Part shown: piece by piece, positions 12,231 to 46,356 of the stretch
Layout of the letters: each line of letters begins with the position of its first letter
Position numbering within the stretch: the first letter of the stretch is position 1
IMG/VR virus record: IMGVR_UViG_3300042465_004839
Coordinates: 1-64,000 of that record
Source: a virus
Length of the DNA stretch: 64,000 nt
Strand: one strand, 5' to 3'
The notes under the pieces: model-generated
Seen by the model: only the letters and a program-made list of their open reading frames with translations
Databases searched by the model: none
What the model was told of the DNA's origin: nothing
Program-made: the position numbers and the translations under genes

Positions 12231-12749
12231 TTATGATTTATTTTTTTTAATTATTTGTTTTAGTTTACTGATATATTTCTCATCCTGTGCATAGATACTT
12301 GATAGTAGTTTAAAGTACTCAGCATCGGTTGTAATGAATAGGGCATTTTGTATCTGGAATGCTTTATAGTCAAGGATACAATCTTCTACTGACTCATACT
12401 TTGCATAAGCTCCATAGTCGTGGCTGTTGATAGCAAAGGTAAATCTTTGCGCTGCGACTCGCATACCAAAGCAATTCAAATTGTTTTTAAACACTTGTGA
12501 CTTAAAGTTACTGCTTTCTAATATTGCCTGTGCCATTACAATGTGGCTAAACTTTATTTTGTGCTTTTCAATACTTGACTTAAAACAATCAATGTCTATT
12601 TTGTTTTCAAGGCAGTTGGCAATAGATAATTCCTTTTCAAGTGTAGTCACTTTCTTATTAGGTAGCAGTTGAATTACTGCTACACCTGTTACTGCACCAA
12701 TAATAAATATTATTAGTACTATGGCTATATCTCTTTTAAATTCTTTCAT
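12231..12749 (-). CDS. Membrane-anchored GH73 glucosaminidase
   Basis: N-terminal TM; AQAILESS, NCFGMR, YESVEDCILDY, YAQDEKY. Confidence 0.8.
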   Translation of the reverse strand: MKEFKRDIAIVLIIFIIGAVTGVAVIQLLPNKKVTTLEKELSIANCLENKIDIDCFKSSIEKHKIKFSHIVMAQAILESSNFKSQVFKNNLNCFGMRVAAQRFTFAINSHDYGAYAKYESVEDCILDYKAFQIQNALFITTDAEYFKLLSSIYAQDEKYISKLKQIIKKNKS

Positions 12750-13330
12750 GTGTTTTTATTTATAGTAGCAAAATTATTAAAGTCACTATTGCTGATTACA
12801 TCTCCATAAAAATCAATTTCATTTACTTCCTCATTTACCAAAGCAAAGTCTAATAAAGCTCCGAGTACATGGCTATCTTTATCTAATACAGTAAAGTCAG
12901 ATGTGTCTTCAGCCCATTCTACTGCACTATTAAATCTAAATGATGTAAAGCCATCGTATGAAGTGTATCTTTCTTTTAAATAGGTATCAAAAGCATCGTA
13001 ATTACTTTGTATGTACTTTGCAATGTTACTTACTACAGGAATAACATCTACGTCTACTGCATCATTAGTGTAGTTATAGTACTTAGGGGATACAATTTTT
13101 TGATATTTCATTGACTCAATTAGTCCTAATTCAATTAGTTTAATTTCAATTTCATCAGTTAACAAATCAGCTATTTGTTCATTGTAACCTTTCCAGTCTA
13201 CTTCCACGTCATCTAAATCATCTACTTCATTGTACTCACGATATTCATCTAATTCACTATCTCCATCCCATATTGTATTGTAAAAGCCATTGAATAATGG
13301 TAACCACGTTTCTATTGTTTTATTTTCCAT
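12746..13330 (-). CDS. Highly acidic hypothetical protein
   Basis: 194 aa, D/E-rich; FNGFYNTIW, SPKYYNY, SYDGF motifs. Confidence 0.6.
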   Translation of the reverse strand: MENKTIETWLPLFNGFYNTIWDGDSELDEYREYNEVDDLDDVEVDWKGYNEQIADLLTDEIEIKLIELGLIESMKYQKIVSPKYYNYTNDAVDVDVIPVVSNIAKYIQSNYDAFDTYLKERYTSYDGFTSFRFNSAVEWAEDTSDFTVLDKDSHVLGALLDFALVNEEVNEIDFYGDVISNSDFNNFATINKNT

Positions 13331-16300
13331 AATTTTTATTGTGTTTTTAAATTGTTTGGTATTGTATGTTTAAAGGATTAATTAACTTGCCATCCATCAC
13401 GATTTCAACTACTGTATACGTTTCTTTTGGGGAAATTCGTAGCATCTTGCTGATACTTTCAGCAGCTTTGATCCTTTCATTCTGATGGAATTCTAATATT
13501 TTAATAATTGTTCTTCTTAACTGTGGCGTTAGTTTTGTTACCCTGTTGTTTAGCTCTGTGGCTATTTGTCCATTAGTTAAATTCATAATTTTTGTACTAT
13601 TTTTATGTGATTAATAATTACATCTTGTTTAATTGCTGTCAGTTTACTTAATAGTTTTATTGTTTTAATGGTTGGATCTTCTAAATCTTGTTTTAACTGC
13701 TTATTGTATTTAAAACAATCTACTATGTTTGCCTTTTGATGACTGTTCATATCTTTCTTAAATTAAAAGGTATAGCATCTAATCCCCAGTTAAACTTGTA
13801 ACCTACTGCTAACAGCTCTAATTCCATATTTACAAGTGTAGTAAATTCAGCATCTTCATTGCTGTAAAAGTTTACAATATCTTTTGCTTCTTGTGGTAAT
13901 TGGTCAATGTTTTCAAACAAGTCTACATATTCTACTTTCATATTTATTGTGTATTTAAATTGTTATCAATAAATTCTATGTCTACACATTTGCACATCAA
14001 TTCCTCAGGAAATGCTCCACAATTAAAGTATGCACCAATGAAGTATGCCTTTGCTTCGGATTCAGTTACACTACTACTTATATTCGTAGTGTAATTGTTT
14101 TCAGCATCATCAAATTTTACGTTTACTGTATTTAGTTTGCCCATTTTTATGTGTTTTTTAATTTTTAAATTTGTTTGTGTTTGTATGTTTAAAATCTTTC
14201 GTTAAATTGTTGTAATCGTTTGACAAGCATTCTATCTGATTCAAAAAGTATTTGTCTTTCAATAGGCTGTAAATCTTTGTATACATCAGTTGTTTTACTG
14301 ATTAATGGATGGGGATATTGTGCTTTTAAAATATCACTTGCTAATTTTAATTGTTCGCTGTTCATAATTCTAAATATAATTTTCGTAGTAAAATGATTGT
14401 TCAACAACAGGTAATTGTGTTTTTAAAACAATATGGTTATTGTTAATTGGCGCAATTCCATAACCAAAATGTATTGATAGTCTTTCTATCACTTGCTTTT
14501 TGGATGTTGCTTGTATTTGTATTTTGTGCTTTTTGTTTAAAGCTTTCGTTATTGTTACAATATAATTTTTCATAATTTTATGTGGTTTTACAAAGTTTTT
14601 TTAATTCATTTAAATCTTTAATTCTAACACTATCCCAATTGCCTTTAGTCAAATCTATTAAAGGCATATTGTTAGTTATAGTTGTATACTTATTGTATGT
14701 AACTGGGCTTGTATAGGTTACTTCGTAGTGACCATAGCCATTGAATCTAAATGTAAAATCGTTTAGTCTAATCTTATTTTTCATTGTGTTTTTTATGTGT
14801 TTTTTATGTGTTTTTAAATTGTCATTCGTGTAATTTCTGATATTATTAATTGAAAACTGTTAGATTGTAATTGTAAGTTACCCCTTTTCCACAATTCAAT
14901 ATCTTCAATACTTGCTACATAACCATCAATTTTTTGCAAAAAAGAAGATTCAAAACAATTGTTTTCTAAATTTAATTCTAAATCATAGAAGTTTAATTTT
15001 GTATACAAATGTTTTTCTAAATAAATGTCAATTGCTTCTTCCCAATCAATTGCATAAATGCTTTGAATTGAATCGTAACTGCTAACCTGATCACTTTCTC
15101 CTTTTTCAAAATCATCATCACATACATGATGGAATGATTCTATTTCGTATTTTCTCATAATAGTTTTTATGTGTTTTTAAATTGATATGTAATCTAAACT
15201 TTCGTATGTATAGAATTCTATGTAGTTATTTGGATAGGCATTTTCTAATGCAGTCATTAAATCATCATTGGAATATTCTATACCATTGTTTCTTTCTGAT
15301 AAAACGATAGGCTGTATCACATCCATAATTTCATCTTGTTTTAAATCAGTCAATAGTAAGAAATCTTCCTCCTGAAATGCTGTAGTATTGATGTTTATAA
15401 TGTTTAACTTTTTCATAATTTTTTGTTGTGTTTTTTAATTGTTGATTGTTTTTTAAAATTTTGATAGATAAATATTTAAAGGTATAAGGTCAAATTCTTC
15501 TTCGGTTTCTTCTACAAAATCATCATCATTAATATAATCTATTTTTCTGTTATCGTTATGTTGTTGTAACCATTCTGAAAAATGATTTTTATTTTCAATT
15601 ATCACTTCTAATTTTTGGTTATCCCCATTTCCATAGATATCATTATATCTTACTATGTACATTTCTTTTGCTGATTTTTCTTTACTTGTTTTCATAATTT
15701 TTTGTTGTGTTTTTTAATTTTTAGGTTTATAATATTTGATTTAAATAAATTGGTTTTAAGGTATAATTATTTTTCAATTTGTATGTTTGACCAGTGCAAA
15801 TGAGATCCATGTAATCAGATAACTGTAATGATTCAATACAATGCTGTTTTATAAGTTTTTTAGTGTTTTTATCAGCAGTAGAAACTGCTATAATATTACC
15901 TTTAAAATATATTGCTTTCATGTGTTTTTAAATTGTTAGTCTTTTAAAAGCTCTACTGTTAGGTTATAAAATTTGATGTAAAAATCAATTGGAATTAATG
16001 TGTTATATTTATCAGCTTGTCGCATAATTTCAGCCTTAATAATACTAAATTCGTTTTCGCAATTGTTTTTTTTGCAGTAATTTGTAATGTTTTCAATTCC
16101 AGCGTTTCTTAAATTGAAAGATGTTTGTTGTAATGTTTGCATAATTTTTTATGTGTTTTTAAATTATTAATTTATAAAGTCAGATAGTTTTGTATCTATT
16201 GGAAATTGCATATTACCTATCCAAATATTACCATCCTCAGATATAGACAAATCTTTTGTTTTTACATTATCGTAATCAGTATAGAATTGTCTAAATTCCT

Positions 16301-17483
16301 TTATTGCCTGTTTTTCAAATTTTTTATAATTTGTTTTGAATTGTTTTGAAGTATTCATAATTTTTTTATGTGTTTTTTATATGTTTTGTTTAAGTTGAAA
16401 GCAGTTTTATAACTTGCTTAGGTTAATGTATTATTGAATTACTATAGTTGAATCTAACGGATATATATTTAATTTGAGATCCATAATCATTTTGTTAAAA
16501 TCAAATGACCAAAATTGCCTATCCAATTGAATCAAATTACTTTTTTCATTATAGTAATATGGAATTGAATTGCTTTTTAAATACTTAATAATTTTTTTCA
16601 TAATTGTTTTATGTGTTTTTAAGTTGTTAGTTATTAATTAATTCTTTTAGCATTTTAGAATTGAAACAAATTGTTTCAAATTGACTTAAATATTCATCGT
16701 TATTTTGTATTTCGTGCAATTCGCATCCAATATAATCGCAAACTGATTCATTGAATTCATTTACTGATACAATTTTGGCATAACTACAGGCATTCATAAC
16801 ATCCGTAACCATCAATATTGGATCACAGCCTAAAGTATATTTATAGTATACGTTTAACGATTTTAAGTAAGGCTGTAAGCTCTCATAATTAATACTTGTG
16901 GTTTTATCATTATTTAGTTTAATGATATCGTTTAAATTTAAATTTTTCATAATTGTTTTTTGTGTTTTTAAATTTTTAAAATTTGTTTTATTTGGTCATT
17001 AAATTGATTGTATCTAAAATTTGATTTGCAGTAAAATAATCATTTATGCTATCAGTTAATTTTGTAATTTCTATTTTTTGGTTTAATTCATAATGATAGC
17101 ATTTATCGTAAAAGGCAGTTTTTACCTTTCCTGAAATATGATATCGTTTATTTGAATGCTTTAAATTATAAGGCTGTATTGTAATGATATCAACAAAACA
17201 AGTTTTATTATTAATATCTATAACTTTTTTTTGTAATGATGCGCCAACATTTACCAACTTTCCATTGGAATAATAATTGATAGGAATAAAGCCTAAATTT
17301 TTTAAGGTATCCCAACTTTTTAATTTTGTTATGTTCATAATTTTAAATGTGTTTTTTAATTGTTTTTAGATAAATTCCAGTGTTTAAAGTAATTCTACTA
17401 AAATGATTAGTAGAATTACTGCAATTGCCAAACCGATAATTTCTGATAAAAATAAAATTGTTTTTATAATTGTTTTCATAGTA

Positions 17484-17843
17484 CTAATAATTTAATTCAT
17501 TAAAAAAACTACTAATCTCATTTTCGTAAGAGTAAAATTTATCCCTTTCAACTTGTGATGAAAGTAAACTTGCTAATAATTCGCTATTGATATTTTTTAA
17601 TTCATAGCCATATTCTAACGCTAATTGAATGCTAATATTTAAACTACTATCATAATCTTTTAAATATTGAATAGCAGTAGAATAATAAATTATTTCAACA
17701 TCAAAACCATTGTCGTTTTCTATGGCATCCCTTAATTCATCATAACTTGTGATTTCGTCAGTCATGTAGTATGCCAAATCAATTTGGCTGTCTAAATCTG
17801 ATAAAAATGATTTTGCTTTTTTTGTGTTTTCAGAGTAATTCAT
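17484..17843 (-). CDS. Acidic protein, Ocr-like DNA mimic candidate
   Basis: 119 aa, acidic and helical; EIIYYSTAIQYL recalls the T7 Ocr PHYYADI segment (weak, by eye). Confidence 0.35.
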   Translation of the reverse strand: MNYSENTKKAKSFLSDLDSQIDLAYYMTDEITSYDELRDAIENDNGFDVEIIYYSTAIQYLKDYDSSLNISIQLALEYGYELKNINSELLASLLSSQVERDKFYSYENEISSFFNELNY

Positions 17844-17882
17844 AATTTGTTTTTTGTGTTTTTAAATTGTTAGGAATTTATG

Positions 17883-18416
17883 TTAGTTAATTTTTTGTAT
17901 TTTTGGATTTTCTAAAAACATTTTTTGAATTTCATCTAAAAAATTTGAACATTCTAAAACATTTGAATAATTAATTTTTTTATTATTAAAACTGATATCA
18001 AATTTTACAGTTTTATTAACTTGTTTACTTTTAGAATCAAATTGAGAATTAACATAATATGTACTCATATGTAAATAACCATTATGCCCATAACTTTCTT
18101 CTAATTTAATGCGACAATGTTTACTTCCATCTAATTCAAAATGAAAATTATAATTTTTAAAAATTTCTTTTAAACTATCAATAAACTGCAAAAATGTAGC
18201 ATTACACAAATTATCAAATATTTTATTTTCATTTTCAACATTTGTGTAAAAATCATTTTTTTCAATATTGTATTCATTTGCCTTGCTAAATAATGAATCA
18301 ATAACATTGTTTTGAGATTCATTTTTTTGTTTAATAGAATTCATTTGTTGGAATTCTAACACTAAATTGCTGACCAAATTGTTTTGGCTTTCGGTTAAAT
18401 TTTTAATTGTTTTCAT
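17883..18416 (-). CDS. Hypothetical early protein
   Basis: 177 aa, preceded by the leader repeat. Confidence 0.6.
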   Translation of the reverse strand: MKTIKNLTESQNNLVSNLVLEFQQMNSIKQKNESQNNVIDSLFSKANEYNIEKNDFYTNVENENKIFDNLCNATFLQFIDSLKEIFKNYNFHFELDGSKHCRIKLEESYGHNGYLHMSTYYVNSQFDSKSKQVNKTVKFDISFNNKKINYSNVLECSNFLDEIQKMFLENPKIQKIN

Positions 18417-19035
18417 AATTGTTTTTTGTGTTTTTAAATTATTGATTGTTATAATTGAATTCTAATATTTCGGATAAACTAAAATCAATTTGAATGATTC
18501 TATTTTCAATTTCGCATATACAAGTTACTCTTTTACCTTTCATTTGTGTAACTTGTAACCATCTATCATTTAAATTTTGATAGTTACTTTTGGTGAAAAT
18601 TTTTGCTGATAATAAATTTTTCATAATTGTTTAGTTTTGTTTTTTGAAATTTAAAATAAATAATTTAATTGCTGATGGAATTACTAATAATTCCGATAAA
18701 CCTAACATATATATGTTAGTTGTGATAATTGAAATTAAGGCTAAAATAAAGCCTAAATAAAGAAATGTAAATAATAAGTTTTTCATAATGTGTTTTTTTG
18801 TTTCGTTTTGATATGCAAAGAATCATTTAATCGTTTAAAACTGAAATAAAAATAGAATTAAAACATTTTAATTTGTAAAATGCATCTATAAATCAGACAA
18901 TTAAAATTTAAAATACTTAAAAATAAATATTATTTAGAATGATTCTAAAAGAAATAAGGCTAAAAATAGCAGTTTTTAACAATCAAAAAACTTTAAAGCT
19001 CTTATTTTTTATGCATAAAAAAATTGATACAAAAA

Positions 19036-19073: not shown

Positions 19074-19221
19074 ATTTTGTCAAAATATGCTTAAACACTG
19101 GTCAAACATATAATTTGAGTAAAATATGTGTTTATTTGAATTATTTTTGATAAAAAATAAGGCAATATAAACCATCAAATAAAAAGAAGTTATAATAATA
19201 TAGTAAGGTAAAAACAAAAAA

Positions 19222-19473: not shown

Positions 19474-20152
19474 TGTAATAATGTAAGTTAGTTATTGTCT
19501 TAAATAGGTTTAAAAGCAGTAAATTTGATTTGATATATAATAGCACCACAAAAAATTGAATGTAAAAAGTTTAAGTTATAGATGTGATTCTTTATTTATA
19601 TGTAAATAATGGATCAAAAAACTTATATTTTATACTCAAATTTATTTTTAAATAATTATTTACAATGGTTTATTATTTATAGTGCGAATGGAATCAATTA
19701 AACTTTCTTTATTGAACATATCACATCCTTTAAAATGAATCAGCAAAGTTTTAAATTTTATTTTTAATAATTTTATTTGCTGTTTAATTGTAATCAAATA
19801 ATATAAAAAACTGATAGCCAATGGTTTAACTGGGATGGGGCTGTTTTTTTCTGAACTTTTTTTTACTTTGAATTGAGTAGTTACCTCACTCATTTCCATA
19901 CATACATTAGTAATGGAGGGGGGTGATACTTTGGGGGTGGGCTTTTTTCTTTTCGCCTTAGGTTTATCTTGTAAAGGTTTGTTTTCTTCCATTATGTTTA
20001 TATTTTCTTTAGGCAAAGGTAGTATAAAACCGTATTAAAACAAAACTCTAATAAAATCACTCCTTACTTTGTCTAAACTCGGTAAATACGAAGACAGGCT
20101 AAATAGTATCAAAACACTTGTAAAACTCGAACCGACCGCATATATTTGCAGT

Positions 20153-22195: not shown

Positions 22196-22270
22196 TTGTC
22201 GGGAGCAAGGAATTGAACCTCATTTTCTACCTCTCGTAGGTAGTGTAATTGCCATTATACGACATCCCAA
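22196..22270 (-). tRNA. Degenerate tRNA-like gene (non-canonical anticodon loop TACGAGA)
   Basis: D-arm GTAT-AATGGCAA-TTAC, anticodon stem CTACC/GGTAG, T-arm TGAGG-TTCAATT-CCTTG; imperfect acceptor stem, no U33. Confidence 0.55.
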
Positions 22271-22491: not shown

Positions 22492-22857
22492 TTATCTACT
22501 TACTACTACTCCATTATGCATTAGCGTTACCTGACAAGGTACTTCCACGTTCTCTACTTGCTTGTGCCTCTTTCTTAACCTTTTGCAATACTGTTCGTAA
22601 CTCCACTGGCAATCTTCTTTTTTATTGTAGGACTGCCACTTATAAATTAAACCTTTAGAACAATTATTAGTTAAGTCGTACACTATATCTCTGATATTAA
22701 AGTAGTAATGCTCAAAATATTTAACTATATCGCCTGATTCTTGTGCCATATTATAATCAAAACTAATCTTTTGCTTTTTTATAAATTCGTCAATATATCC
22801 TGTGCAGATACGCTCGTATTCAATGTTTAAAGTAGATACAATTTCTTTTCGTGTCAT
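22492..22857 (-). CDS. Hypothetical protein
   Basis: 121-aa ORF downstream of the promoter at 22886-22879. Confidence 0.6.
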   Translation of the reverse strand: MTRKEIVSTLNIEYERICTGYIDEFIKKQKISFDYNMAQESGDIVKYFEHYYFNIRDIVYDLTNNCSKGLIYKWQSYNKKEDCQWSYEQYCKRLRKRHKQVENVEVPCQVTLMHNGVVVSR

Positions 22858-23115
22858 GATTTTTGATATTTCATTTCACAAAAGTATCAATATAATTTAC
22901 AATTACTAATTAAATTATATTAATCTTTATAATAATATATTTTTATAATCTATACCTCGCCAAATGTACCTAAAAAAACATAGTTTTGGCGAGTTATGTT
23001 CTATATATTAGATGTCAGTTTAAAACTGATACCCTTACTAAAATACCTAAATATACATTTTAAGTACTCATTTTGTGTAATATCATACAAATACGGTACT
23101 TAAAATGTGATTTTT

Positions 23116-25297: not shown

Positions 25298-25471
25298 ATT
25301 GCAAAAGTAGTGATGTTTAGCTAAATAACTAATTAAATTAATTTAATCGAATTATATTCTTGGGTACTATACCTTTGTTAGATAATATTTTAGCTAAAAT
25401 TAATATTAAAAGAGTAAATAGCTAAAATGTTAGATTAAAAAAATATAATTTGTTTTATTGAATGTAGTTAT

Positions 25472-28746: not shown

Positions 28747-30479
28747 ATGTATTGTCTTTGTTCGATGGTTGTTCGTGCGGAAGACAAGCTCTTGAGAGAG
28801 CAGGAATAGAAGTAAATCAGTACTTTGCATCTGAAATTGATAAGTACGCTATTCAAGTTACAATGGCTAACTATCCAGACACAATTCAGTTAGGTAGTGT
28901 AGTAAATGTTGATGGAAAGTCATTACCAAAGATAGAATTGCTACTTGGAGGATCCCCATGCACCAATTTTTCATTTGCAGGTAAACGTAAGGGTATGTCT
29001 ACTAAAGATGAGCAAGAAATATTAACTTTAGAGCATTACTTACAGTTAAAAACTGAAGGATTTGAGTTTGAGGGTCAGTCTTACCTATTTTGGGAGTATA
29101 TGAGGCTACTAAATGAGGTAAAACCTACATACTTTCTTCTTGAAAACGTAGAAATGGGTGAAAAATGGGAAAAAGTACTAAGTAAAGCCATTGGGTACAA
29201 CGGAATTCATATAAATTCTGCATTAGTGTCAGCTCAGAACCGTAAAAGAATCTACTGGACAAATATTGGTATGCAACCTGCTGGATTATTTGGTGATTTA
29301 GAGTCTATTATTCAGCAACCTAAAGATAGGGGTATACTTTTAAAGGATATTTTACAAGATAATCCAAATGCTAAGTACTATATTTCCTCAAAAATGGAGG
29401 AGCATTTAAACTCAAGAGATTCTGTTAAAATAAAAAATGGTGAAGATAAAAGTGGTACAATTACTACAAATGGTGAGGGCAAACAAGGCAATAACTCTAC
29501 ATTTATTTGTCAAGAAGTTGATGAAAAGTATTTTTTAAGTGAAAGTCTAATAAGTAAGCTTCATGTATACAACCAAAGACAGATTGATAACGGCAATGGG
29601 TTTATGGCTAAATTTAGAGATACAAATGTAGTTGAAAAGATGGACTGTATAAAAATTGGTGGTGGGATGAAGGATGACTTAATAGTTCACAACACAATGC
29701 CACGCTCATCAACTACAGGAAAGGGTGGTACTGGTCCGTTAAGTAGAAATGATGGTAAAACATACTGCTTAGACACAAAGAATACCAATGCATTAGAGAT
29801 TGTATGTGGTCAGTTAGGCTACGATAAGCCATTTGAAGAAAACGATAAGGCTCAAGCACTACTACAAAGAGATTACAAGGGTATGAGTAACTACGGAATT
29901 AATGTAGTGGTAAATGCAAATGGGGCTAAAGAACAGGTAGTAGGTAGGAAAGCTCAAGAAGATGGAACTTACAAAAGAGAGTACGAGGTTTCAAATGATG
30001 AAAAGGCTAAAACATTGGAAACAAACAAACAAAAAAACAATGTTGTGATTAGAGAAATAAAACAAATAAGCCAAAACAACAAGTCAAATGGTGGCACTCA
30101 GCCTTACCAACAGGATAGAGTATACGATGTTGATGGCATAAGTCCTGCACTAACAAGTCAACTGCCTAAAGGAAGTTCTATGATTTATTTAAATGAAAAT
30201 CAACAAAAAAAATTTAACCCAAACATAGATTCAGATAAAGCCAATACACTTACACTTGCTATAGGAAGAGCAGGTAGCAGTAGTGAGTATATGGACTCTG
30301 TTTCTAAAATAGCTAATATCACATCAAGAATTAGAAGACTTACCCCAGTAGAGTGTGAAAGATTACAGACAGTTGCAGACAATTATACTGCACACGTTTC
30401 AGATTCTCAGAGGTACAAGATGCTTGGAAATGGTTGGACGATTTCAGTTATAGCCCACATATTTAGTTACATAAAATAA
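28731..30479 (+). CDS. C5 cytosine DNA methyltransferase with expanded variable region
   Basis: LSLFDG (I), GGSPC (IV), ENV (VI), QNRKR (VIII), RRLTPVECERLQ (IX), LGNGW (X). Confidence 0.93.
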   Translation: MENKINVLSLFDGCSCGRQALERAGIEVNQYFASEIDKYAIQVTMANYPDTIQLGSVVNVDGKSLPKIELLLGGSPCTNFSFAGKRKGMSTKDEQEILTLEHYLQLKTEGFEFEGQSYLFWEYMRLLNEVKPTYFLLENVEMGEKWEKVLSKAIGYNGIHINSALVSAQNRKRIYWTNIGMQPAGLFGDLESIIQQPKDRGILLKDILQDNPNAKYYISSKMEEHLNSRDSVKIKNGEDKSGTITTNGEGKQGNNSTFICQEVDEKYFLSESLISKLHVYNQRQIDNGNGFMAKFRDTNVVEKMDCIKIGGGMKDDLIVHNTMPRSSTTGKGGTGPLSRNDGKTYCLDTKNTNALEIVCGQLGYDKPFEENDKAQALLQRDYKGMSNYGINVVVNANGAKEQVVGRKAQEDGTYKREYEVSNDEKAKTLETNKQKNNVVIREIKQISQNNKSNGGTQPYQQDRVYDVDGISPALTSQLPKGSSMIYLNENQQKKFNPNIDSDKANTLTLAIGRAGSSSEYMDSVSKIANITSRIRRLTPVECERLQTVADNYTAHVSDSQRYKMLGNGWTISVIAHIFSYIK

Positions 30480-31306: not shown

Positions 31307-31369
31307 AAAAATTTAATTAGTTACTGTCCAACCAATTTTTAACTTTGTGAAATCAAAACAAACATAATT

Positions 31370-32041
31370 ATGAATAAATACATCACATACTTCAGAGTAA
31401 GTACAAAAGAGCAAGGACAGAGTGGCTTAGGATTAGCTGCCCAAGAACAAATGGTTCTACCCATCACCAACAACGGAATAGTAGTGGCATCATTTACAGA
31501 AGTAGAGTCAGGAAACAAGTCTAACCGTAAAGAGTTAGAAAAGGCTATCAATACCTGTAAACAACATAACGCCATACTCCTCGTAGCAAAACTTGATAGA
31601 CTATCTCGTAACGTACACTTCATTAGTACACTTATGGAAAGTAAAGTACAGTTCAAGTGTGCCGATGCCCCAGAGATGGACTCATTCACCGTACACATAT
31701 TCTCAGCTCTCGCAGAAAGAGAACGTAAAATGATTTCCGACAGAACCAAAGGCGCACTACAAAGCATCAAAAGAATCATTGACAGAGATGGTGAGTACAC
31801 CACTAAAGCAGGTAGAGTAATATCTACTCTCGGTAACGGTCTACTACAAAACAAAGAAACTGCCAAAAAACAAATGGCGTACGTTGCATCCCACAGAGTA
31901 TACCAAAAAAAGTCTAACATAGGTCTTGCCCTCGTACAGTCACTATCACAAAATGGTGTTCCCAAGAAAGATATTAAACAAAAACTTGCCGATAACGGTA
32001 TTAACGTGTCACTACAAACAATATATAAATATGCAAAATAA
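31370..32041 (+). CDS. Serine recombinase (resolvase/invertase family)
   Basis: YFRVSTKEQ (catalytic Ser), ESG, KLDRLSR, AERERKMISDRTK; C-terminal HTH-like; own promoter at 31310-31347. Confidence 0.93.
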   Translation: MNKYITYFRVSTKEQGQSGLGLAAQEQMVLPITNNGIVVASFTEVESGNKSNRKELEKAINTCKQHNAILLVAKLDRLSRNVHFISTLMESKVQFKCADAPEMDSFTVHIFSALAERERKMISDRTKGALQSIKRIIDRDGEYTTKAGRVISTLGNGLLQNKETAKKQMAYVASHRVYQKKSNIGLALVQSLSQNGVPKKDIKQKLADNGINVSLQTIYKYAK

Positions 32042-32042
32042 A

Positions 32043-32219
32043 ATGAGCAAACAAACAGCAGTTAAATTCTCAATGTACCAATGGTTAATTGGAAACAAAA
32101 GAAAGTATTGCAATTCGTGTAATCAAATACAATATCATTCTTGCGACCAATTAAGAGGCTACACTTGCAAATGTGGCGCTAATAAAATAATGGATTACTT
32201 TTTAGAAAAATATAAATAA
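32043..32219 (+). CDS. Small Zn-ribbon protein (start revised to 32043)
   Basis: MSKQTAV...CNSC...C...CKC. Confidence 0.5.
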   Translation: MSKQTAVKFSMYQWLIGNKRKYCNSCNQIQYHSCDQLRGYTCKCGANKIMDYFLEKYK

Positions 32220-32222
32220 ATT

Positions 32223-32705
32223 ATGAGCAAACAAACAGCAAAATATATAATACCGCACATGACATTATCCATTGATGGTAGTTTATATAACCACAAAACA
32301 AAAAAATTTAAAAAGTGGACAAAAGATACTAATGGTTATATGAAAACACAAATTTGGGTTGGCGGAAAACCAAAAAACGTACATCAACATAGATTACTTG
32401 CTCAAGAATTTATTAATAACTCAAAAAATAAAAAGCAAGTAAATCATATTAATGGTATTAAGCATGATAATAGAATAGAAAATCTTGAATGGGTTACTCA
32501 ATCTGAAAATGGGTTACATTCATTTGCTAATGGATTGCAAAAAGTTACAAAACCTTGTAAAAAAGTAATTGATACTAGTAATAATAAAATTTATGATAGT
32601 GTAACAGAAGCAGCTAAACATAATGGAATATCAAGAAGTCATTTATCTAATATGCTTACAGGTAAATTTAATAATAAAACAACACTTAAATTATATGGAA
32701 AATAA
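32223..32705 (+). CDS. HNH homing endonuclease with NUMOD1-like tail
   Basis: HRLLA...VNHINGIKHDNRIENLEWVT...YDSVTEAAK. Confidence 0.88.
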   Translation: MSKQTAKYIIPHMTLSIDGSLYNHKTKKFKKWTKDTNGYMKTQIWVGGKPKNVHQHRLLAQEFINNSKNKKQVNHINGIKHDNRIENLEWVTQSENGLHSFANGLQKVTKPCKKVIDTSNNKIYDSVTEAAKHNGISRSHLSNMLTGKFNNKTTLKLYGK

Positions 32706-33512
32706 ATCTATGACAGCAGTTGAATGGTTAGAGCAAGAATTTATTGCCCTACAAAATTATGGAGTAAATGAACTTGGATTATTTGCAAAAGCCAAAGAAA
32801 TGGAAAAGCAACAAATTATTGATGCTTGTAATCAAATAGAAGTAATTGGATTAGACTATGAATTGCCTGGAAAAAAATACTATAACCAAAATTTTAACAA
32901 ATAAATTATGACACCAAAAGAAAAAGCAGAAGAGTTAGTCAGAACGTATTATACTTGGGGAATTAATAAGGAAGGACAAACATTAAGTTGGTTAGAGGCT
33001 AAACAATGTGCATTAATTGCAGTAGAGGAGATATCAAAAGTGGTAAATGATATTTGGATGGATTCTTTTACAACAGGAGAATCTGATAATAAGTTTTATA
33101 ATTATTGGCAAGAAGTTAAAAAAGAAATAGAAAAAATATGAAAGTAGAAGTATTCAAAGACATCCTTAGCAGGATAAGAAAGGCAGACGCAGTTGTTAAC
33201 GTGCTGTACCCAATGGTAGATTTAACTAATGTAACGGACGATTATGTTAGCGTCATAGAGATGATGATGAAGTGTTATTACGGAGAAGACGCAGCAGAAT
33301 GGATTTCTTCTTACCTATACGATTTGAGAAACCATGATAATGCGTGGGCTTGGGATAAGGATGGTAAGGCTATATTAAACAATGAGGATGAGTTGTGGGC
33401 TTATTGCGAAGAACTGAAAATGAGCAAAAAGGATTATGAGCCAGCAGCTCCAATGACAGACGAACAGAGGGCAGAACTAATGGAGGAGATGAAGAAAGCA
33501 TTTTTAAATTAA
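32695..33512 (+). other. Three small hypothetical genes (32695-32904, 32908-33141, 33138-33512)
   Basis: TAVEWL...AKEMEKQQIIDA and MTPKEKAEEL...AKQCALIAVEE...YWQEVKKEIEK types, which recur in Bacteroidota phages (recognised from memory). Confidence 0.6.
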
Positions 33513-33545
33513 AAATATTTAATTAGGAAATTAATTTAGAATACC

Positions 33546-33644
33546 TAATTTTGCTCTTGTGTTTAGGAAATAGTTCTCATAATGCTATTCCTGATTAATT
33601 TGTTTTGTAATAAAATCCTTCAATTAATTTTGAGGGATTTTTTT
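33546..33644 (+). ncRNA. Candidate small RNA, about 90 nt
   Basis: TAATTTTG promoter 33546-53, hairpin AGGAAATAG/CTATTCCT, terminator 33612-33644, no ORF. Confidence 0.5.
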
Positions 33645-33660
33645 ATTTGAAATAAAGTAT

Positions 33661-33771
33661 TATATTTGCCCTGTTATAATGCGTGCGGCATAATAAAGAT
33701 ATTGAAAAATTCTCGTACACTTAGAGAAAATTTCAACTAAGCCTGATAGCCGCACGCTGTTGGGTTTTTTT
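33661..33771 (+). promoter_or_regulatory. Promoter + second three-hairpin leader with complementary loops and terminator
   Basis: TATATTTG 33661-68; hairpins 33674-96, 33702-36, 33739-67; T7. Confidence 0.7.
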
Positions 33772-34140
33772 ATGCCCAAAAATTAAGGTAATAATGGTCG
33801 GCACGAAAAAATGACAGCATTATTATTTAAAGCGATACTGTGAGGTATGTATAAATCGCAATCCCAGCTATAAAAGTAAAGGGAATACATTGGAGAATGG
33901 ACACTTCAAAAGTTGTACTTAAATTTGCAAACCCCATTTGTTTGTGATGCACCAAAGAGGGTTGCGGCTCGGGAAAATAGTCGTAATTTGAATAGTGAGT
34001 AGCCAAAGAGTTTAACACCTCTAAGGCTACCGCTATGCACATGGTAAGGATTGCTCTCAAAAAAATAGTTAGTTATAGTATAGTTTAAGTTAAAAAAAAT
34101 TAATTAGAATCCTTTTAAACAATACTTTACCTTTGAACTT

Positions 34141-34323
34141 ATGGAAAACATAGAAGAATTAAAAAGAACAGCATTAGAAGTAGCTTTAAGAAGCAGAGAG
34201 TTTACTCAATTAGCACTGGAAACAAAAGATGCAATAGAAGAAGCAGACTCATTAGAAACTCTAAAAACTTGGTTTAAAGGTACGGTAAACGAATTAGGAT
34301 TAGACAAATATTTTGGATTTTAG
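34141..34323 (+). CDS. Small hypothetical protein (probably leaderless)
   Basis: TACCTTTG at 34128-35, ATG 5 nt later. Confidence 0.55.
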   Translation: MENIEELKRTALEVALRSREFTQLALETKDAIEEADSLETLKTWFKGTVNELGLDKYFGF

Positions 34324-36510: not shown

Positions 36511-39500
36511 ATGCCAGATAAAATAAAAGAAGCATTTACTGCTATAAACGACAAAGAATTATTTTTAGACGAACAAGACTTTAGGGATAATGTAATGAAA
36601 GACCCAAAAGGAACATTTGAAGCATTAAATAATTATGGTAAAACTAAAGGATTTTTTTTAGATTATGGAGATTTTGAAAGTGCTTTAGATTTAAAAAAAA
36701 AAGAGCCTACAGCACCATCTATACCAAATTTTTCAACAAGTTTGGGAGGGGATATGCAACCTTTGCCAAGTGGTGCAAAAAATATTTCCCAATCACCATT
36801 ACAATCGAATATAAAAACAGAGTTTCCGACATACATTGACCCTACAAAACCTTTAAAAACAAAAGAGGTTATAGATGTAAATGCGGAGAAGAAACCTTTT
36901 GATAGTGAAGTAATAAGAAAAGAAAGAGAGGTAAGATTAGGTACACATAGAGAAAAGATAATGTCTTCTATTGTTAAAGAACCTGACTTATATACTAAAA
37001 AAGCATCTAAGTCACATTATGGAACTATAGCAGTACCAGAAATGCCTAACATTGATAACATATCAAAGGCAATAGATTACTATGCAACAAAATTAGTTAA
37101 ACAAGGTGAATACCTTAGCCCACTTGATAAACAATATTTAGTAAATAGTGTTGCTCAACAAGTAAAACAAAGGAAAAATATTGCAGATGCAGCAGCAAAT
37201 GCAAGTCTTAGAGCAATAAACAGAAAAGAATTACCTGAATACGCTTACACAGGCGTAACTAATGCTAAAGGAGAAGTGTTAGTAAAAGGACTTTTTCAAG
37301 AAGCAAACGAAAAAATAATCAACGAACAAAATAAGGAAGTTGACAATTACAAAATAAATTCTGAAAATTTAACAAAAACAGTAGCAACAGAAGTTGCCCC
37401 AGAAGTAAATGCTTTAAAACTTGATGTTAAAGCCAAAGCAGAAATATTAAATCAAGAGGTAGAAACTGCTTTTAATAAATCATTTAACGAAAAAGACAAA
37501 GCTATGTATGACCAATACAATCAATTGGTTCAAAGTGGGCAAATGACTCCTGATGTAGCAAATAATGCTTTAAAAATAAAAAGAGAAGAATTACAAAAGC
37601 AGACACAAGCAGAGATAAGTGCTGCCTATGCTCCTAAGTTTGATGCATTAAATAAAGAATCTAACTTAAAATCAAAAGACATACAAAGTACATATAACAG
37701 AAACTACTTAGCAAAAGCAAACTTACTAAAAGAAACTACTAACAAAAAACTTCAAGAAATAGCCCAAAAAAATATGGTAAATATGCCTAAAGGGTATATG
37801 GAAAGATGGGCAAAGGATTTTCAAGAAAGTTTAGCTGAAATAGAAAAGAAAAACGTAAATCAAGCTTATTTAGATGCTAAAAGAATGCCAGCAGAGGCAA
37901 GATTAGCAAAAGCAGTTTCTTTTGGGTTTGGTAATGTATTAGGCTCAATAGGAGGGGCTATGTCATTTGCAGGATTAGATGCAAGTGCAGTAAACGATGT
38001 AGTTATTAAAACTACAATGCAAAATGAACTTACAAGTAGTGCGTATTACCGAATTAAAGATGAAGAAGCAAAAGCAAATGGAACTCCACACGCTAATTTT
38101 GTAGAGAAACTTTCTGATCCTTCTTGGTGGTATGATAATATGGGAAGTACCGCACCATTTATGTTAGTAACTATGCCAGTAGGTATAGCATCAGGTTATG
38201 GGGCAGGCTCTATAGCAAAATTATTAGGAGCGAGTAAAAGAGCAACAGCTATTGCAAGTGCAGTAGGTGGTGGTGCAGTAAGTTGGTATGGAGAAAACAC
38301 ATTAGAGGCAGGAAGTGCATTTAACGATGCTATTAATCAAGGGTACTCAGAAAACGATGCATCAGAAATAGCAGCAAGAACATTTAGAAATAACATAATA
38401 ACATTACCTCTAAGTGTATTCCAGCTAATGCCAGTATTTAGTAAATCATTTAAATTTACTAAAGCATTACCGTTAGAAATAATTTCTGGAGGTGTTGAAG
38501 AAGTGTTTCAAGGTTGGTCACAAGCTGAAGCAAATGCAGCAGCAAATGGGTATGATGTAAGTTTATTTGAGTATGCTAAAACCCCACAAGCATTAGAGGA
38601 GGGAACTATTGGAGGTGCGATGCAAGCAGGTATGGCAATGTTTGCATTAAATGAAACTCCAAATATTGACAAACAAATATCTGCATTAATGAGTTCTATA
38701 AGTGTAGGTGGCGAACAGTATGCAAGAGCAGTATTGGATGTAATGAACAAGAATCAAGCCATTACAGATGCTGAATTTAAAGAAGCTAACCTACAAATAG
38801 ACTACATCTTAAATGGTATTGAAAGTGTTCAAAACTTTAATGTAGACGACAATTTAAAGGCAGGATTAGTAGGTAAATTTGCTAAAATAGGCAGAGCAAA
38901 GGCATTAATTACAGATGATGAGAATGACTTGGCAAGTCAAGCTGCAAAAGAAATGATTGCAGAGCAAGAGAAGGATATAAAAGAAATTTTAAAAGGTAAT
39001 ACACCTTTATATTTAGTATTCCAAAAAGGGAATCCAATACCAACTTTAGCAAGTGAAGAGCAGTTTAACACAATACTAAAAGACCCAAAACTAAGAGAGG
39101 AATTTACATTACAAGCAATAAATGATGATGCATTGCAAAGTAAAATAGATGAAACATATAAAACAGGAGTAGTAACAGAAGAAGAAACAATAAATGCAGA
39201 ACAAGAAATTATACCAGCAACTGAAACCCCTGCTGCACCACCTAGCGGTGTTAGTGGTGAGGTACAGGCATCTGGTGATGTAGAAGCAAATATAGCCAAC
39301 AGAAAAAGAAAAGATTTATTCCCTGACAAATCAAGATTTGCTAATGACGTAGGTCAAAGTGGAGAAAACTCTCAAATATCATCATACAAAGAAGTAAATG
39401 GAATTGGATTATCAGAATATTCTAATCCTAAAAATGGTTTAGTAGATGTTATAATGACAGGAACTTCTGATAATGATTATGTTGGATACATAAGAATATA

Positions 39501-42500
39501 CGAAAACGGCAAGCCAACAAATAGATGGACATCTAAAATGTCAAACAAATCTGGCAATAAAGGCAACTTTAAAACCATGATAACAGAAGCTCAAAAATTA
39601 CTTCCAGAGGGTCACGAATATACTGAAACTACAAATATATCTTTAGATGGTTTAAGGGTTTATGCTAACAGTTTAAGCAGAGATTATGAAATAGCTACTG
39701 ATGAAGATGGAAAACCTATAACAAATAATGTTGAATTAAATAATGCAACATTAGCAGCACTACAAGGCGCAAAAAATCAACAAGAAACTGAAGATTTGTT
39801 TGACACTAAACGAGGAATTACAAGAGATGAATTTAATCAAATAAAAGAGCAAGTAAATAAATTATTGCCAAATACAAGATTATTATTTGACACGGCAAAT
39901 GGAATTGTAACAATACAATTACCTGTACTAAAATCAACTAAAAAACAATTAACAACTAACGAACAACAAAAAGCATCTAAAAAAGTTGCTGAAGTAACTC
40001 CTAAAGAAGGCGACAGCGTTATTATAAAATCACGTTTTGGTCGTGATGAAAAGTTGGTATTTAATAAAGGAGAGTGGAGAGTACAATTTGGTAAAGATGA
40101 ATTTAGTGATATTGGTAAGGCTGCTCAACAAGAAGCTCAAGATGCATTTAATAAAAAGAATGAACCTGTTGCTGAGGTTAAGGAACAAGCACCTGTAGTT
40201 AAGGAACAAGCTCCTAATAGGGCAGAAGGAAATGTTAAAGTAAAATCTTTTAAACAAGGAGATGGCGGAACAAAAGGAGTTTTTGAAGGAGAAGATGGTA
40301 AACTTTATAAATCTATTGAGCCACAAGAATCAGTTCAAGACAAAGAAGGAAACTTTAAGCGTCAAACCATTAAAGATACACTAACAGACGAGCATAAAAT
40401 ATTGTCTGAACTTCAAGATAACCCTCATGTACCTAAAGTAGGTAAAATTGTAGATACTACGGAAGGCAAAGCTTTTGAAATAGAAAAATTAGATGAAGTT
40501 GATACTTTTACTAAAGATGAGTATAGGGAAATTCAAAAAATACTAAATGACTTAAACGACAAAGGTTATCATGTAGGAGATAGAGTTACTGTTATGAAAC
40601 GCCCAAAAACAGGCGAACTTGTTATTATTGATTTTTCTGCTGGGTACAAAGGAAGTAGAATGTCAAGAGATGCCGATGAATATATGGGTGACGTAGCAAA
40701 GAAACTAAGTAAATCTGATGCTATAAATATTAAATTAGAAGACTTGTCAGAAATAAATAGAGAACAAGCAGATGCTTTTTTTGACAAAGAATCAACTACT
40801 GAATACTACTTAACACAAAGACCTCCAAGCATAGGAACACACCCAACAGAAGGATTATTATCGGTTAACGAAGCAGAATATAGAAACAGAAAAAATGTTT
40901 ATATACTTAAATATGATAGAAAACTTACACCAAACGAAATAGCTAACTTTGAACTAACTCCTAAAGTAACAAATAAAGAATTTTTAGGTCAAAAAATATT
41001 AGGTGTATATGGTAAAGTTCCATTTTATGTAACTAAAATAGATTACAAAAATGGAACTGTAAAAATGGCTGCGGAGGTAGTTGGAAAAGAAGTAGAAAAA
41101 GAAATTTCTTTTAGGGAGTTTAGTAAAAATATAGACGAAGGTAAATATAAAGTAGAAACACCCAAAGAAGAAAAACCTGTTAAGGAACAAAAAGAGCCTG
41201 TTAAGGAACAAACTGAAAAAGAAAAGGCTAAAGAAAAGGCTAAGGAAGAATTAAGAGCAAGAGCAGCAAAAGCTAAAGCTGAGGCTATTAGTGCTGCACA
41301 AAAAGTTCAACAAGCATTAGAGGCAACAGGAATAACTGTTGAAGTAGTTGATAGTGAGCAAGAGTTCCAAGATAAATTAGATGCTGAGGGTGTTAATAGA
41401 GCAAGTTCAGCAGGTAAAAGCGGTGTATTTATATCTAAGTCAGGTAAAATATTTATTAACGGTAGCAAGGTTGATGCTAACTGGGGTAGTGTAGATGTAT
41501 GGCACGAAGGAACTCACCCTATTATTAACATAATAAGGAACACAAACCCTAAACTATACAATTCAATAATAGATGGACTAAATAAATTAGTTACAAGTAA
41601 TCCAGAGATTGCTGATGTTTTAAAGTGGGCGCAAAAAAATTATAAAGGCAAAAACACTTTAGAGGATGAAACTATAACTGAAACCATAGCAAGAATAGCA
41701 AATGGCAATATAGATATATCAAAGATACCTACATCATTAAGAGATAAGATAATAGATTTCATTAATGAGATTGCTAAGTCATTAGGAATAAAACCTATGT
41801 TCAAAAGTTCTAATGTTGCAACATTTAAAAAGATAGCAGGCGAAATATCTGCTGCACTTAAAGAAGGTAAAGATATTAGTAGTATAGTAGGTGCAGAAAA
41901 TGTTAAGAATTATGAGTCAAAAATAACAATAGAAGACTCAGAGTCTTATGTTAAAAAAGCAAATGAATCAGAAACATCAGAAGGTATTAATAATGAAAAT
42001 ATATCTATTAGCGATATAAGCGGTAACTCTAGAAAAGGCATTCAGTTTTCAAAAGGCAAGGAAAGAACCGAAGAGAAAGCTAAAGAAACAGTTGAAGATA
42101 AAATCAAGGCAGAAACAATAAAAGCAGTAAAAAAATCTATATTAGACTACAAAAGTTTAAAAGGTAAAATATCAAGAACACTATTTTATGATAACACAAG
42201 GGTTGGTTCTTTAGAAATAAAAAACAGAATTACAGGATACACTCCACCTGTTATGGGTAAGGGTGGCTTCTTTTATTCTTATATGCCTAGTTCTTTAAAA
42301 AATAAAGCAGTATTAGCATTTACAAGTATTAACCAAGCCATACAAACCTTAAAGAGGCAAATGCTATACCCTGATGGGTTACAGGCTATTGCTGCTCAAA
42401 ATTTTCAAACTGCACATCTTGGGAATAAGTCTACCTTAGAAGCATTGTTTGGGAAAAGTGGTTCTGAAAATTTAGGCATATTTCAAGACTCTGTAAAAGA

Positions 42501-45500
42501 TGTAAAAAACAATCCGAATGGGGAAGCTGAGTTGCTAGAAACATTGAAAAAAGCAACAATAGATATTGCCAATCAAAAAGTGCAGTCAGGAGTTAATGAA
42601 GGCAAGCCAACGGCATCAGCAGAAGAGATAAAAAAAATAATAGAAAGAAATGGAGGAAATTTAGATGGTATAAAATCACTTGATGATTATAGGGATAAAG
42701 TTTTGACATTTACAGGAGGTGACTCATTTGGAGCAAGAAATATATTATTTACTGAAGTACTTCAAGAAAAACCAACAAAAATAACTAAATCCACAAGGGA
42801 ATCTCACCAAATAATACATTATAAGTATGGCATTCCTACCTTATCTGAAATAGCCGAAGGTAATAATCAAAGTGAACTAAATAATGCCGAAACAGGAGAT
42901 GTTGTTAAATTTGTAAAGCCATACACAGACCCTGTTGTATACACTACTGACAAAAAAATATATAAACAATACTCTGAAAATCCAACGCCTGAAATGGTTG
43001 AGAATGGCATTAAAATAAAGTTATTGCCTAAAGATGCTGCACACGAATCTTATGCTTTTGTTTTAAAAGGTGAAAACGTAGGTTTGTTAGACAACTACAT
43101 TTCAGCCACTCAGTTATATGAAAAAAATGAAAAAATAGCCAACACCCCTAAAAAGCAAAGTTTTTATAAAGTGGGAAGGATGCCTGCAAATGCAGAGGCT
43201 GGAGTGTATCCAGAAAACCCCATTGCTCAGGGAAAGGCTCAATACTCACAAGGGAACAGAGATGCTGTTGCAAATAAGAATACAGAAAAAAATAATATTA
43301 TAATAAAAGATAATAACATAGAGGGCAAACTTCTTAACAATCAAGAGTCACAAAAATTACAAAAAGAAATTGAATCTAAATATAATGACTCAGGAATACA
43401 AAAATTTGGACAAGAAAATGAAGATATACGTCAGAATTTATATAACTATGATAACCCATTAGCAGAAAAAGATGTAAATGGGATTAATATAAGAATTGCA
43501 GAGGGATTATTAGAGGGAGATAAATATTCTGGAAACAGGAAAAAAACTTATTTGTTATATGCAGATGGTAAGATAGCAGGTAAATTCTATTCTGTAGCAG
43601 ATGCAAAAAAAGTTGTAAGTTTTATTGAGCAAAACTTAATAAAACCAAAATCATTAGCACCAAGTAATCCTCAATACTCTCAAGGTAACAGAGATGCTGT
43701 TGCTAATGAAAACTTAATAAATGGATTCTATTCACCATTAGAGAAAACAATTAACGATTCTAAGCAAGATAAGATGCCTGCTAAACAATGGATAGAAAAG
43801 TTTGCTAAAGGTGAAGAAGCTAAATGGACAGGACTAACTGATTGGTTAAGCTCTCAAACAGGCTCGGTATCTAAAGCAGATATTCAGCAATACTTAAAGG
43901 ACAATAGAATAGAAATTGAGGAAAAAGTTAAAGGAAGTTCTGATTGGATTAAAGAAGGTAAATCATATTTTTCACAAAATAAAAAATATGAAATAAGAGA
44001 TTTAGGTGATAATGAATATACAGTAATTAAAGATGGCAGATATAATTTAGGTAGTCGTGATGGTCTTGAAAGGGCTAAAGAACTTGCATTTGAAGATGGA
44101 TATTCAAATGAAGAAGATATAAATAATGACACTAACTTTGGCAACCGACCTGATTTACAATTAGAAGGAGAGAAAGAAAATTACAAAGAGATATTGGTGA
44201 CGTTGCCAAATAAAGAAGCAATAAAAGAATCTGAAATTGAAGAAAAAAGACGAAAAGCTGGAATTATGGATAATTTTAACTTTGAAACAATGGGTTATAA
44301 TGATACTCGAAATGTTCCAAAGTTTGTATCATCTCACTTTGATGAACCCAACATACTCGTTCATTTAAGGATGAATACTCGTATAGATTCAAATGGTAAT
44401 AAAGTATTGTTAATTGAAGAAGCACAAAGCGATTGGGGTCAAACAGGGAAAAAGAAAGGGTTTAAACCAACTTTTGAAATTAGAAACGAAAAAGGTATGT
44501 TCAATGTTTATTCTTCTGTAAACAATATGAAAGAACCTGCATTTTCTTTTGATACAAAGGAAGATGCAAATAAAATGCTTGAAACTTTAAATAAAACAAA
44601 TGAAAGTAAAGTTCCAACTGCACCATTTGTAATGGACACAAATGCATGGGCTAAACTTGGTTTAAAGGTAGCATTAAAAGAAGCAGTTGCACAAGGAGTT
44701 GATAAGATTGCTTGGACTACTGGAGAGCAACAAAATGATAGGTATGATTTAAGCAAACAAGTTGATGAAATCAATTACAGTAAAAATTCAGATGGAACTT
44801 ATGATGTATCCGCCAACAAAAATGACAACCAAGTATTTGACAAGTCTTACATAAAAGAAAATGAATTAGAGGGAATAGTAGGCAAAGAAGTTGCTCAAAG
44901 AATAATAAACAATGAGGGTAAAGAACCGGTAAGGGGTAGTGGTAATTATAAAAAATCATTAAGTGGTGATGGATTAAAAGTTGGCGGTAAAGGAATGAAA
45001 GGCTTTTACGGATCACCAACAGAAGGTAAATTAGGTATAGTAGGTGAGGTTGCTAAGAGTTTGTTTAAGCAAGAACCGAAAACGGTAAGTATAGAAGGAA
45101 TATTAAGTTTTAATGTTTACGATAATAAAGATGGGAATTTGCAAGGTAATTTTGCCGACTTTAATTCTGCAAAAGAATTTGCAAAAAAAATAGATGGTAG
45201 TGTTCAAAAAACAAATATTTCAACTCAAAATTCAATAGACATAACACCAGAGTTAAAAGCACAAGTTGAAGAAGGTCTGCCTCAATTCTCGCAAGGGAGT
45301 AGAGATATACAATCTCTTGTAGATATAATTACAGAAACTCAAGAAAAAGGACAATTAGATGATAATGAAATAGCAGAAACTTTAGAAGCTTCTTACTCTA
45401 AAGAAGAAATTCAAGAAGCATTTGATTATATCAATAACCCACCTATAAATGAGCCTACTGCAACAGAAACTGTAGAACCATCTAAAGTTGAATCTGAAAA

Positions 45501-46309: not shown

Positions 46310-46356
46310 GCTCACCATGCCTCTCAACGATGCACACTTTGGTGGGCTTTTTTTTT
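46310..46356 (+). terminator. Intrinsic terminator after ferritin
   Basis: GCTCACCA/TGGTGGGC stem with a large structured loop, T9. Confidence 0.75.

Follow-up and report, generated by a model that had tools for sequence, protein, structure and literature searches.

Results

A promoter-to-terminator unit between two phage genes

The DNA analysed here, referred to as the window, comprises the first 64 kb (64,000 nucleotides) of a 73,169-bp virus record in IMG/VR (IMGVR_UViG_3300042465_004839). It has a G+C content of ~32% and encodes phage proteins, including a portal protein, an exonuclease, a methyltransferase, an HNH endonuclease and a protein of 3079 amino acids. DNA sequencing runs that contain the phage sequence carry the label lake water, none of the runs listed for the phage is of RNA, and the GenBank phage collection held zero relatives of the window, either by DNA or by two proteins. 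Shine-Dalgarno-like sequences are absent from the start regions and TAnnTTTG-type −7 elements are in use, which points to a member of the Bacteroidota as the probable host. This phylum is not known to have Hfq or to make use of Shine-Dalgarno sequences.

The sole tRNA that ARAGORN found in the window is a tRNA-Ser with the anticodon CGA (22198-22270, minus strand). The 3079-aa protein (36511-45750, plus strand) has a single family match, a DarA_C domain (residues 1431-1484), and no PHROG match; the gap separating its gene from a 1373-aa gene contains an abiF RNA motif (46311-46347, plus strand; Rfam, 39.9 bits vs a gathering score of 37).

From the stop codon of a 124-aa gene (33512) to the plus-strand gene at 34141 there is no plus-strand open reading frame of at least 30 aa. 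Within this stretch, the sequence-only reading had described a promoter-to-terminator unit free of open reading frames. Indeed, such a unit is present at 33519-33648 on the plus strand, and no open reading frame of at least 30 aa was found on either strand over 33513-33659 or on the minus strand beneath 33546-33648. The unit lies 34 bp past the stop codon of the 124-aa gene, which is on the same strand. The features considered in this study are:

33508..33526, plus strand: upstream promoter element, an inverted repeat ATTAAA-N4-TTTAAT overlapping the box TTAATTAG (33519-33526)
33546..33553, plus strand: −7 element TAATTTTG (TAnnTTTG) of the Bacteroidota type, recognised by its motif and conserved in relatives
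33558..33648, plus strand: predicted sRNA transcript of ~90 nt with no open reading frame, based on fold, conservation and a covariance model
33558..33564, plus strand: 5′ tail UGUGUUU, with six invariant bases at its start; it complements AAACACA, the core of the leader
33566..33592, plus strand: hairpin 1, with a 9-bp consensus stem and an invariant loop UCUCAUAAU (33575-33583) containing CAU
33593..33611, plus strand: single-stranded linker, G/U-rich, containing the invariant AAUUUGUUUUGUAA (33597-33610)
33612..33648, plus strand: intrinsic terminator with a 12-bp stem, a 6-nt loop and a U-run
34100..34135, plus strand: promoter of the class that also serves the sRNA, heading the structural operon, with the ATG of a 60-aa gene 5 nt past its −7 element (predicted leaderless mRNA)
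12231..18810, minus strand: array of small genes, the proposed targets, with the repeated C/A-rich leader AATTTAAAAACACA..AAAATT-ATG

In F. johnsoniae, transcription start sites are described as lying 4-5 nt downstream of the −7 element (PMC6847099). With this spacing, the predicted RNA should start at 33558 or 33559. The octamer TTGTGTTT, previously taken as the 5′ end, is present at 33557-64, but promoter geometry makes a start at 33558 or 33559 more probable, so that the free 5′ tail would be UGUGU(UU) and thus shorter than the 8-mer proposed before.

The segment 33557-33650 folds with −24.5 kcal/mol, compared with −12.2 ± 2.5 kcal/mol for shuffled sequences (z = −4.9; 0/200 shuffles did as well). 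The predicted fold consists of a short free 5′ tail, hairpin 1, a free linker of 17-19 nt and the terminator, whose hairpin and T-run were found at 33612-41. The three stretches that had been singled out as antisense coincide exactly with the unpaired, invariant parts of the predicted RNA. A short ATG-led frame of five codons in the loop is missing from one relative (G001, see below) and is not conserved. Rfam gave no family at gathering score for 33400-34250 (best E-value 1.4), and ARAGORN found no tRNA at the unit.

Directly after the sRNA, at 33661-33775 on the plus strand, lies a second promoter-to-terminator-like unit with TATATTTG, a 9-bp long-range G+C-rich stem, a terminator at 33739-67 and a fold z of −4.2; blastn found no match to it in the two relatives, G001 and G002. 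The following ~300 nt (33779-34090, plus strand) are relatively G+C-rich and non-coding (fold z −2.7, no Rfam match) and carry a 77-aa TTG frame on the minus strand that matched no family. In the relatives, this slot holds ORFs of 183-259 aa.

The promoter belongs to a class shared with other phage operons

TAnnTTTG alone is not enriched (128 occurrences in the window vs 115 expected) and TAATTTTG by itself therefore means little. In combination, however, TTAATTAG-N19/20-TAnnTTTG occurs at six sites in the window vs 0.13 expected, a number reached by 0/100 shuffles:

7201-7235, plus strand: exact motif match
22879-22913, minus strand: exact motif match
25302-25336, minus strand: exact motif match
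31313-31347, plus strand: exact motif match
33519-33553, plus strand: exact motif match, the sRNA promoter
34100-34135, plus strand: exact motif match

At the sRNA, TTAATTAG precedes TAATTTTG by a fixed 19 bp and occupies the −33 region instead of the TTTG of Bacteroidota sigma-A promoters. The inverted repeat ATTAAA-N4-TTTAAT is common to all six sites, which extends the consensus to ATTAAA-N4-TTTAATTAG, 19-20 bp, TAnnTTTG. There are eight exact sites in G001 and five in G002, with the sRNA site included in both; its −7 element reads TATATTTG and TAGATTTG in the relatives, where TA and TTTG are retained and nn varies. A further site with one mismatch lies beyond the window (genome 67014-67047, plus strand).

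Four of the six sites have an ATG 4-5 nt past the −7 element, which opens a gene in three cases (7240, 25297 and 34141) and a six-codon frame in one. Given the start site spacing of F. johnsoniae, these sites should give leaderless mRNAs. The recombinase gene at 31370 has a class promoter followed by a 22-nt leader. Judged from these sequences, the class appears to be phage-specific and to drive mostly leaderless mRNAs. Not a single site of the TTAATTAG class is found inside the array at 12.2-18.8 kb, and the RNA is thus in a different transcription class from the array genes. Gene content and layout suggest that the array is early and the TTAATTAG class post-early.

Two further arrangements were seen at class promoters. 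On the minus strand, 22857-22879 holds a frame of 5-6 codons in the leaderless position that ends just before, or overlaps, the real gene start; it recurs in G001 (30131-30160, analysis orientation) and in the record L029 (490-520, minus strand) and is hence conserved in three records. It may be a leaderless upstream mini-ORF. In G001 (9235-9269) and G002 (5771-5805; minus strand in both, analysis orientation), a non-AUG leader ~100-130 nt long comes after a class promoter; these leaders share short blocks, have different genes downstream and are without counterpart in the window.

The unit is conserved in two related phages

Homologues of the 496-aa downstream protein led to two related lake phages, G001 (77,878 bp, in two records) and G002 (68,109 bp). 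Both hold the unit in the same slot, between the 124-aa and the 60-aa gene, and their sRNAs are 77-87% identical to the window copy. A covariance model matched only the window's phage (G000), G001 and G002 among the 44 sources searched, and had no match in five further records (G003-G007). Exact-pattern scans of viral contigs returned G001, G002 and one chance match beside tRNAs (L007); among metagenome contigs, 11 stretches were hit, two of them equivalents of G001 and G002 and nine without flanking similarity, and among genome contigs seven, none with flanking similarity. A 28-base exact scan, a single-protein scan and an alignment-based metagenome scan gave no match.

In the three-way alignment, 69/93 columns of the sRNA and 35/45 of the promoter are identical, compared with 14/38 in the flank downstream of the terminator and 177/372 in the upstream 124-aa gene, of whose third codon positions 37/124 are identical. 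The linker keeps 15/17 columns. Invariant in all three genomes are 6 nt of the tail, 10 nt of the loop and 14 nt of the linker, while the stems vary. The consensus retains both hairpins; among its 20 pairs, three changed on both sides (one in the stem of hairpin 1, two in that of the terminator) and three on one side (two and one, respectively), all counted over three sequences. Invariant unpaired segments together with co-varying stems argue for a constraint on an RNA rather than for a plain terminator.

The extent of this conservation has to be read with its neighbourhood in mind. Between G001 and G002, the sRNA and the 124-aa gene are both 77% identical, and the sRNA is no better conserved; likewise, 79-87% of third positions are identical in the adjacent 60-aa gene, a level equal to that of the sRNA. 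A homologue of the 124-aa gene was found at 42 viral loci, and in the best 10 of the 42 the gene runs directly into another coding region. The window's own copy (33138-33512, plus strand) has 70-91% protein identity to L039-L047 and L054, but 41-51% to its counterparts in G001 and G002. This pattern points to a mosaic junction near the 3′ end of the gene, and part of the apparent conservation of the sRNA could therefore reflect recent exchange. Where closer homologues of the 124-aa protein occur in other phages, neither the sRNA nor the promoter class nor the leader array accompanies them. Neither promoter class nor dense leader array was found in G003-G005, which are also without the RNA, so that the co-occurrence of the three elements is inseparable from kinship. 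AlphaFold gave a poor, all-helical model of the 124-aa neighbour (pLDDT 64).

A serine recombinase of the resolvase/invertase family (31370-32041, plus strand) is encoded upstream, with its own class promoter and a conserved 22-nt leader. In G001 (21369-22076) and G002 (13529-14203; minus strand in both, analysis orientation) it is encoded on the opposite strand and its distance to the sRNA is greater by ~10 kb, which indicates that the segment was moved or inverted.

The unpaired segments of the predicted RNA match the leaders of a putative early-gene array

The repeated leader on which the antisense proposal had been built is real: ~16-20 small minus-strand genes at 12.2-18.8 kb are preceded by the near-identical leader AATTTAAAAACACA-N-AAAAAATT-ATG. 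AAACACAA occurs 20 times in the window vs 8.3 expected, with ten occurrences within the array. The array lies 15-21 kb from the sRNA, and similar arrays, on the strand opposite to the sRNA, are present in G001 and G002. It is headed by a long A+T-rich non-coding stretch (18790-19480, minus strand); an 83-aa frame at 19222-19473 resembles, by eye, a helix-turn-helix regulator.

The individual matches reported from the sequence were reproduced. TTCTCATAAT is located at 33574-83 and its exact complement spans the ATG of the gene starting at 15158; AATTTGTTTT is located at 33597-606 and its complement at 17844-53, immediately upstream of the ATG at 17843. Neither 10-mer is significant alone (9/100 and 8/100 shuffles). 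Taken together, the three unpaired segments behave differently: each of them has a 6-mer complementary to 67-89% of the 18 array starts, compared with 0-21% of the 87 others, and this level of joint complementarity was reached by 0/2000 within-segment shuffles and 1/2000 pooled shuffles. When the three-segment mask was slid along the genomes, 3 of 130,275 windows were as good in G000, 2 of 135,509 in G001 and 4 of 126,407 in G002; a separate run gave 2 of 127,993.

Whether pairing favoured the array leaders, as foreseen by the sequence-only reading, varied with the test. With the whole RNA body, that is, with the best duplex for every start region and the hairpin stem allowed to pair, there was no preference (array −10.9 vs others −11.7 kcal/mol; 90/300 dinucleotide shuffles as good). 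With the stem arms excluded, the accessible segments preferred the array leaders over other start regions in the three phages:

G000: array −8.54, other −6.58 kcal/mol (difference −1.97); difference reached by 0/120 shuffles
G002: array −7.76, other −6.32 kcal/mol; difference reached by 0/60 shuffles
G001: array −8.11, other −6.91 kcal/mol; difference reached by 4/40 shuffles

Natural windows of the same genome with the same mask reached the difference in 0/150 cases, as did T-rich-matched windows (0/150), of which 5/150 reached the array mean. These accessible-segment tests were designed after the data were seen. Moreover, the array leaders are repeats of one motif and have to be counted as one target rather than 18 independent ones. 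On the other hand, the unit was defined independently, by promoter class, terminator and conservation, which makes it unlikely that its coincidence with the leader is due to chance. Leader core and RNA segments are both invariant across the three genomes.

The predicted duplexes are short and A-U rich, with −6.6 to −13.9 kcal/mol and typically ~−8 kcal/mol. They take three forms: the tail with AAACACA (7 bp, −6.6 to −6.8 kcal/mol, at many array leaders), the loop together with the linker on ACAA..AAUUAUGA, and the linker together with the tail around the core of the leader. The linker is the most used segment. Loop and linker, or linker and tail, are colinear on one leader, tail and loop are not, and the core of the leader is contested by tail and linker. 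Compared with known sRNA-mRNA pairs, the modelled pairing is weak, and a helper protein might be needed. A comparison of 51 three-way orthologue groups put the leader of the recombinase gene (mean −8.3 kcal/mol) first among the conserved predicted targets, but without significance (14/200 shuffles). The idea that the sRNA arose from an array gene start by inverted duplication was rejected; it has only the 10-mer in common with the gene at 15158.

Discussion

Altogether, the unit at 33519-33648 looks like a real, separately promoted and conserved non-coding RNA gene, and we are fairly confident that an independent, conserved RNA exists at this position. Its promoter class, its fold, its conservation and its preferential complementarity to the array leaders were computed directly.

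The function of this RNA is a matter of greater doubt. It is tempting to speculate that a post-early phage sRNA masks the C/A-rich leader and the AUG of early mRNAs and spares leaderless mRNAs of its own promoter class; we put this forward tentatively, at somewhat below an even chance. According to this model, 33558-33648 would encode a stand-alone small RNA whose transcription is stopped by the intrinsic terminator after ~90 nt. Its promoter (inverted repeat plus TTAATTAG, 19 bp, TAnnTTTG) would also drive the replication and structural operons, but not the early array. The tail UGUGUU and the linker AAUUUGUUUUGUAA would pair with the leader core (AAAAACACA, AAAACAA) of ~16-20 small early genes, and the loop UCUCAUAAU with their start context AUUAUGA. 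A C/A-rich, translation-enhancing leader and the start codon would thereby be masked, as by GcvB on ACA-rich targets, and the synthesis of early proteins would be shut off once post-early transcription begins. Leaderless mRNAs of the same promoter class would escape because they lack the target sites; such an escape had been suggested from the sequence and fits the observation that the promoter class of the RNA mostly drives leaderless mRNAs without target sites. The ends of the transcript, its timing, the pairing in vivo and the repression are what we infer from the computed properties. In its strongest form, the model makes the RNA a global 'anti-leader' riboregulator, a 90-nt RNA that clamps the repeated leader and AUG of every early mRNA in an early-to-late translational switch to which leaderless post-early mRNAs are immune. 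This we regard as conceivable and hold yet more loosely.

The same RNA could be a genuine phage sRNA whose main partners are elsewhere, be it host mRNAs, another phage transcript or a protein that binds the invariant loop and linker. The match to the leaders would then come about simply from the encounter of a G/U-rich seed with an A/C-rich motif. The evidence from promoter, fold and conservation applies to such partners as well, and the weak leader energies and the negative result of the whole-body pairing test speak for them; furthermore, known phage sRNAs are described as often acting on host genes (bioRxiv 10.1101/2024.10.31.621285). What speaks against this explanation is that neither composition-preserving shuffles nor T-rich natural windows reproduce the array preference, that the leader is matched by all three unpaired segments and not by one alone, and that no better conserved phage target emerged. 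We consider it somewhat unlikely.

It is less probable, indeed unlikely, that there is no independent RNA at all and that the operon upstream (31370-33512) simply ends here, with its 3′ untranslated region and terminator. On this view, the DNA conserved upstream of the stretch would be a site for regulation or recombination, and the conserved 'promoter' would have another purpose. The distance of 34 bp to the end of the 124-aa gene, encoded on the same strand, is in line with this, as the terminator would also end that operon; so are the mosaic junction near the 3′ end of that gene and the lack of enrichment of TAnnTTTG alone. However, the full 47-bp promoter architecture is common to five other sites immediately before gene starts, and unpaired segments that are invariant between co-varying stems point to an RNA under constraint rather than to a plain terminator.

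Still more improbable is a promoter-proximal leader with an attenuator in the style of lambda PR′-tR′, in which regulated read-through would express the downstream genes. In its favour, the structural operon begins shortly after the unit and is encoded on the same strand, and in G001 and G002 the terminator is succeeded by ORFs of 242-259 aa. But a separate class promoter at 34100 serves the structural operon, G002 has a further promoter-like site beyond its terminator, the DNA past the terminator is not conserved (14/38 columns) and differs in gene content among the three phages, and no antiterminator-like protein was recognised among the neighbours. That hairpin 1 mimics a tRNA anticodon arm (CAU) and acts as a decoy for a host factor reading tRNA-Met-like loops is very improbable: the invariant loop does contain CUCAUAA, which we take to be the anticodon loop of methionine tRNAs, but a 9-10-nt loop on a 9-bp stem is unlike the 7-nt loop on a 5-bp stem of a tRNA, ARAGORN and Rfam had no match at the locus, and the conserved tail and linker are left unexplained.

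If the RNA does act on the early leaders, its closest functional parallel would be the enterobacterial sRNA GcvB, which silences translation-enhancing ACA motifs (PMC3879156). In both cases, C/A-rich (ACA) elements that shortly precede many start codons are faced by a G/U-rich stretch that is single-stranded, one RNA serves many targets with a common motif, and loss of a translation-enhancing leader is the expected outcome (PMC3879156). The resemblance is functional only: there is no homology in sequence or structure and no Rfam match, the gene belongs to a phage and is proposed to target early genes of that same phage, whose probable host phylum is not known to have Hfq or to use Shine-Dalgarno sequences, and the RNA has an anti-AUG loop in addition. 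The c4 antisense RNA of phages P1 and P7 would be similar in that it is a phage-encoded, trans-acting RNA directed at an mRNA of the same phage; short complementary stretches, exposed in its loops and single-stranded parts, cover a ribosome-binding region. It has one target operon (ant/icd) and functions in the immunity of a temperate phage, whereas here ~16-20 repeated leaders are the proposed targets in a seemingly lytic programme; the window's RNA matched no Rfam phage RNA. The lambda OOP, P22 Sar and PR′-tR′ transcripts, such as StxS, are likewise short phage RNAs that run from a promoter to an intrinsic terminator. Since no gene is present on the strand opposite the unit, it is not cis-antisense like OOP and Sar; PR′-tR′ type transcripts sit before late genes, but the late operon here has its own promoter and the unit is therefore not obviously a read-through leader of that type.

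Phage-encoded trans-acting sRNAs as such are already known (bioRxiv 10.1101/2024.10.31.621285). In a listing-level search of the literature, we found no sRNA described for phages of Bacteroidota and none proposed to silence the repeated leader of a phage's own early genes. The sRNA biology of Bacteroidota is little known. If the proposed function is correct, the RNA would be a counterpart of RegA and RegB of T4, a repressor and a nuclease that bring about the post-early shut-off of many early mRNAs at their initiation regions; those are proteins, whereas here an RNA is proposed to act by base pairing. Among phages of Bacteroidota, where initiation proceeds without Shine-Dalgarno pairing, it would have no precedent. 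It would also bring together three traits of one lineage, namely the leader repeated before early genes, a promoter class reserved for post-early transcription and late mRNAs that are leaderless, and would provide a compact and testable model for the discrimination of leadered from leaderless mRNAs.
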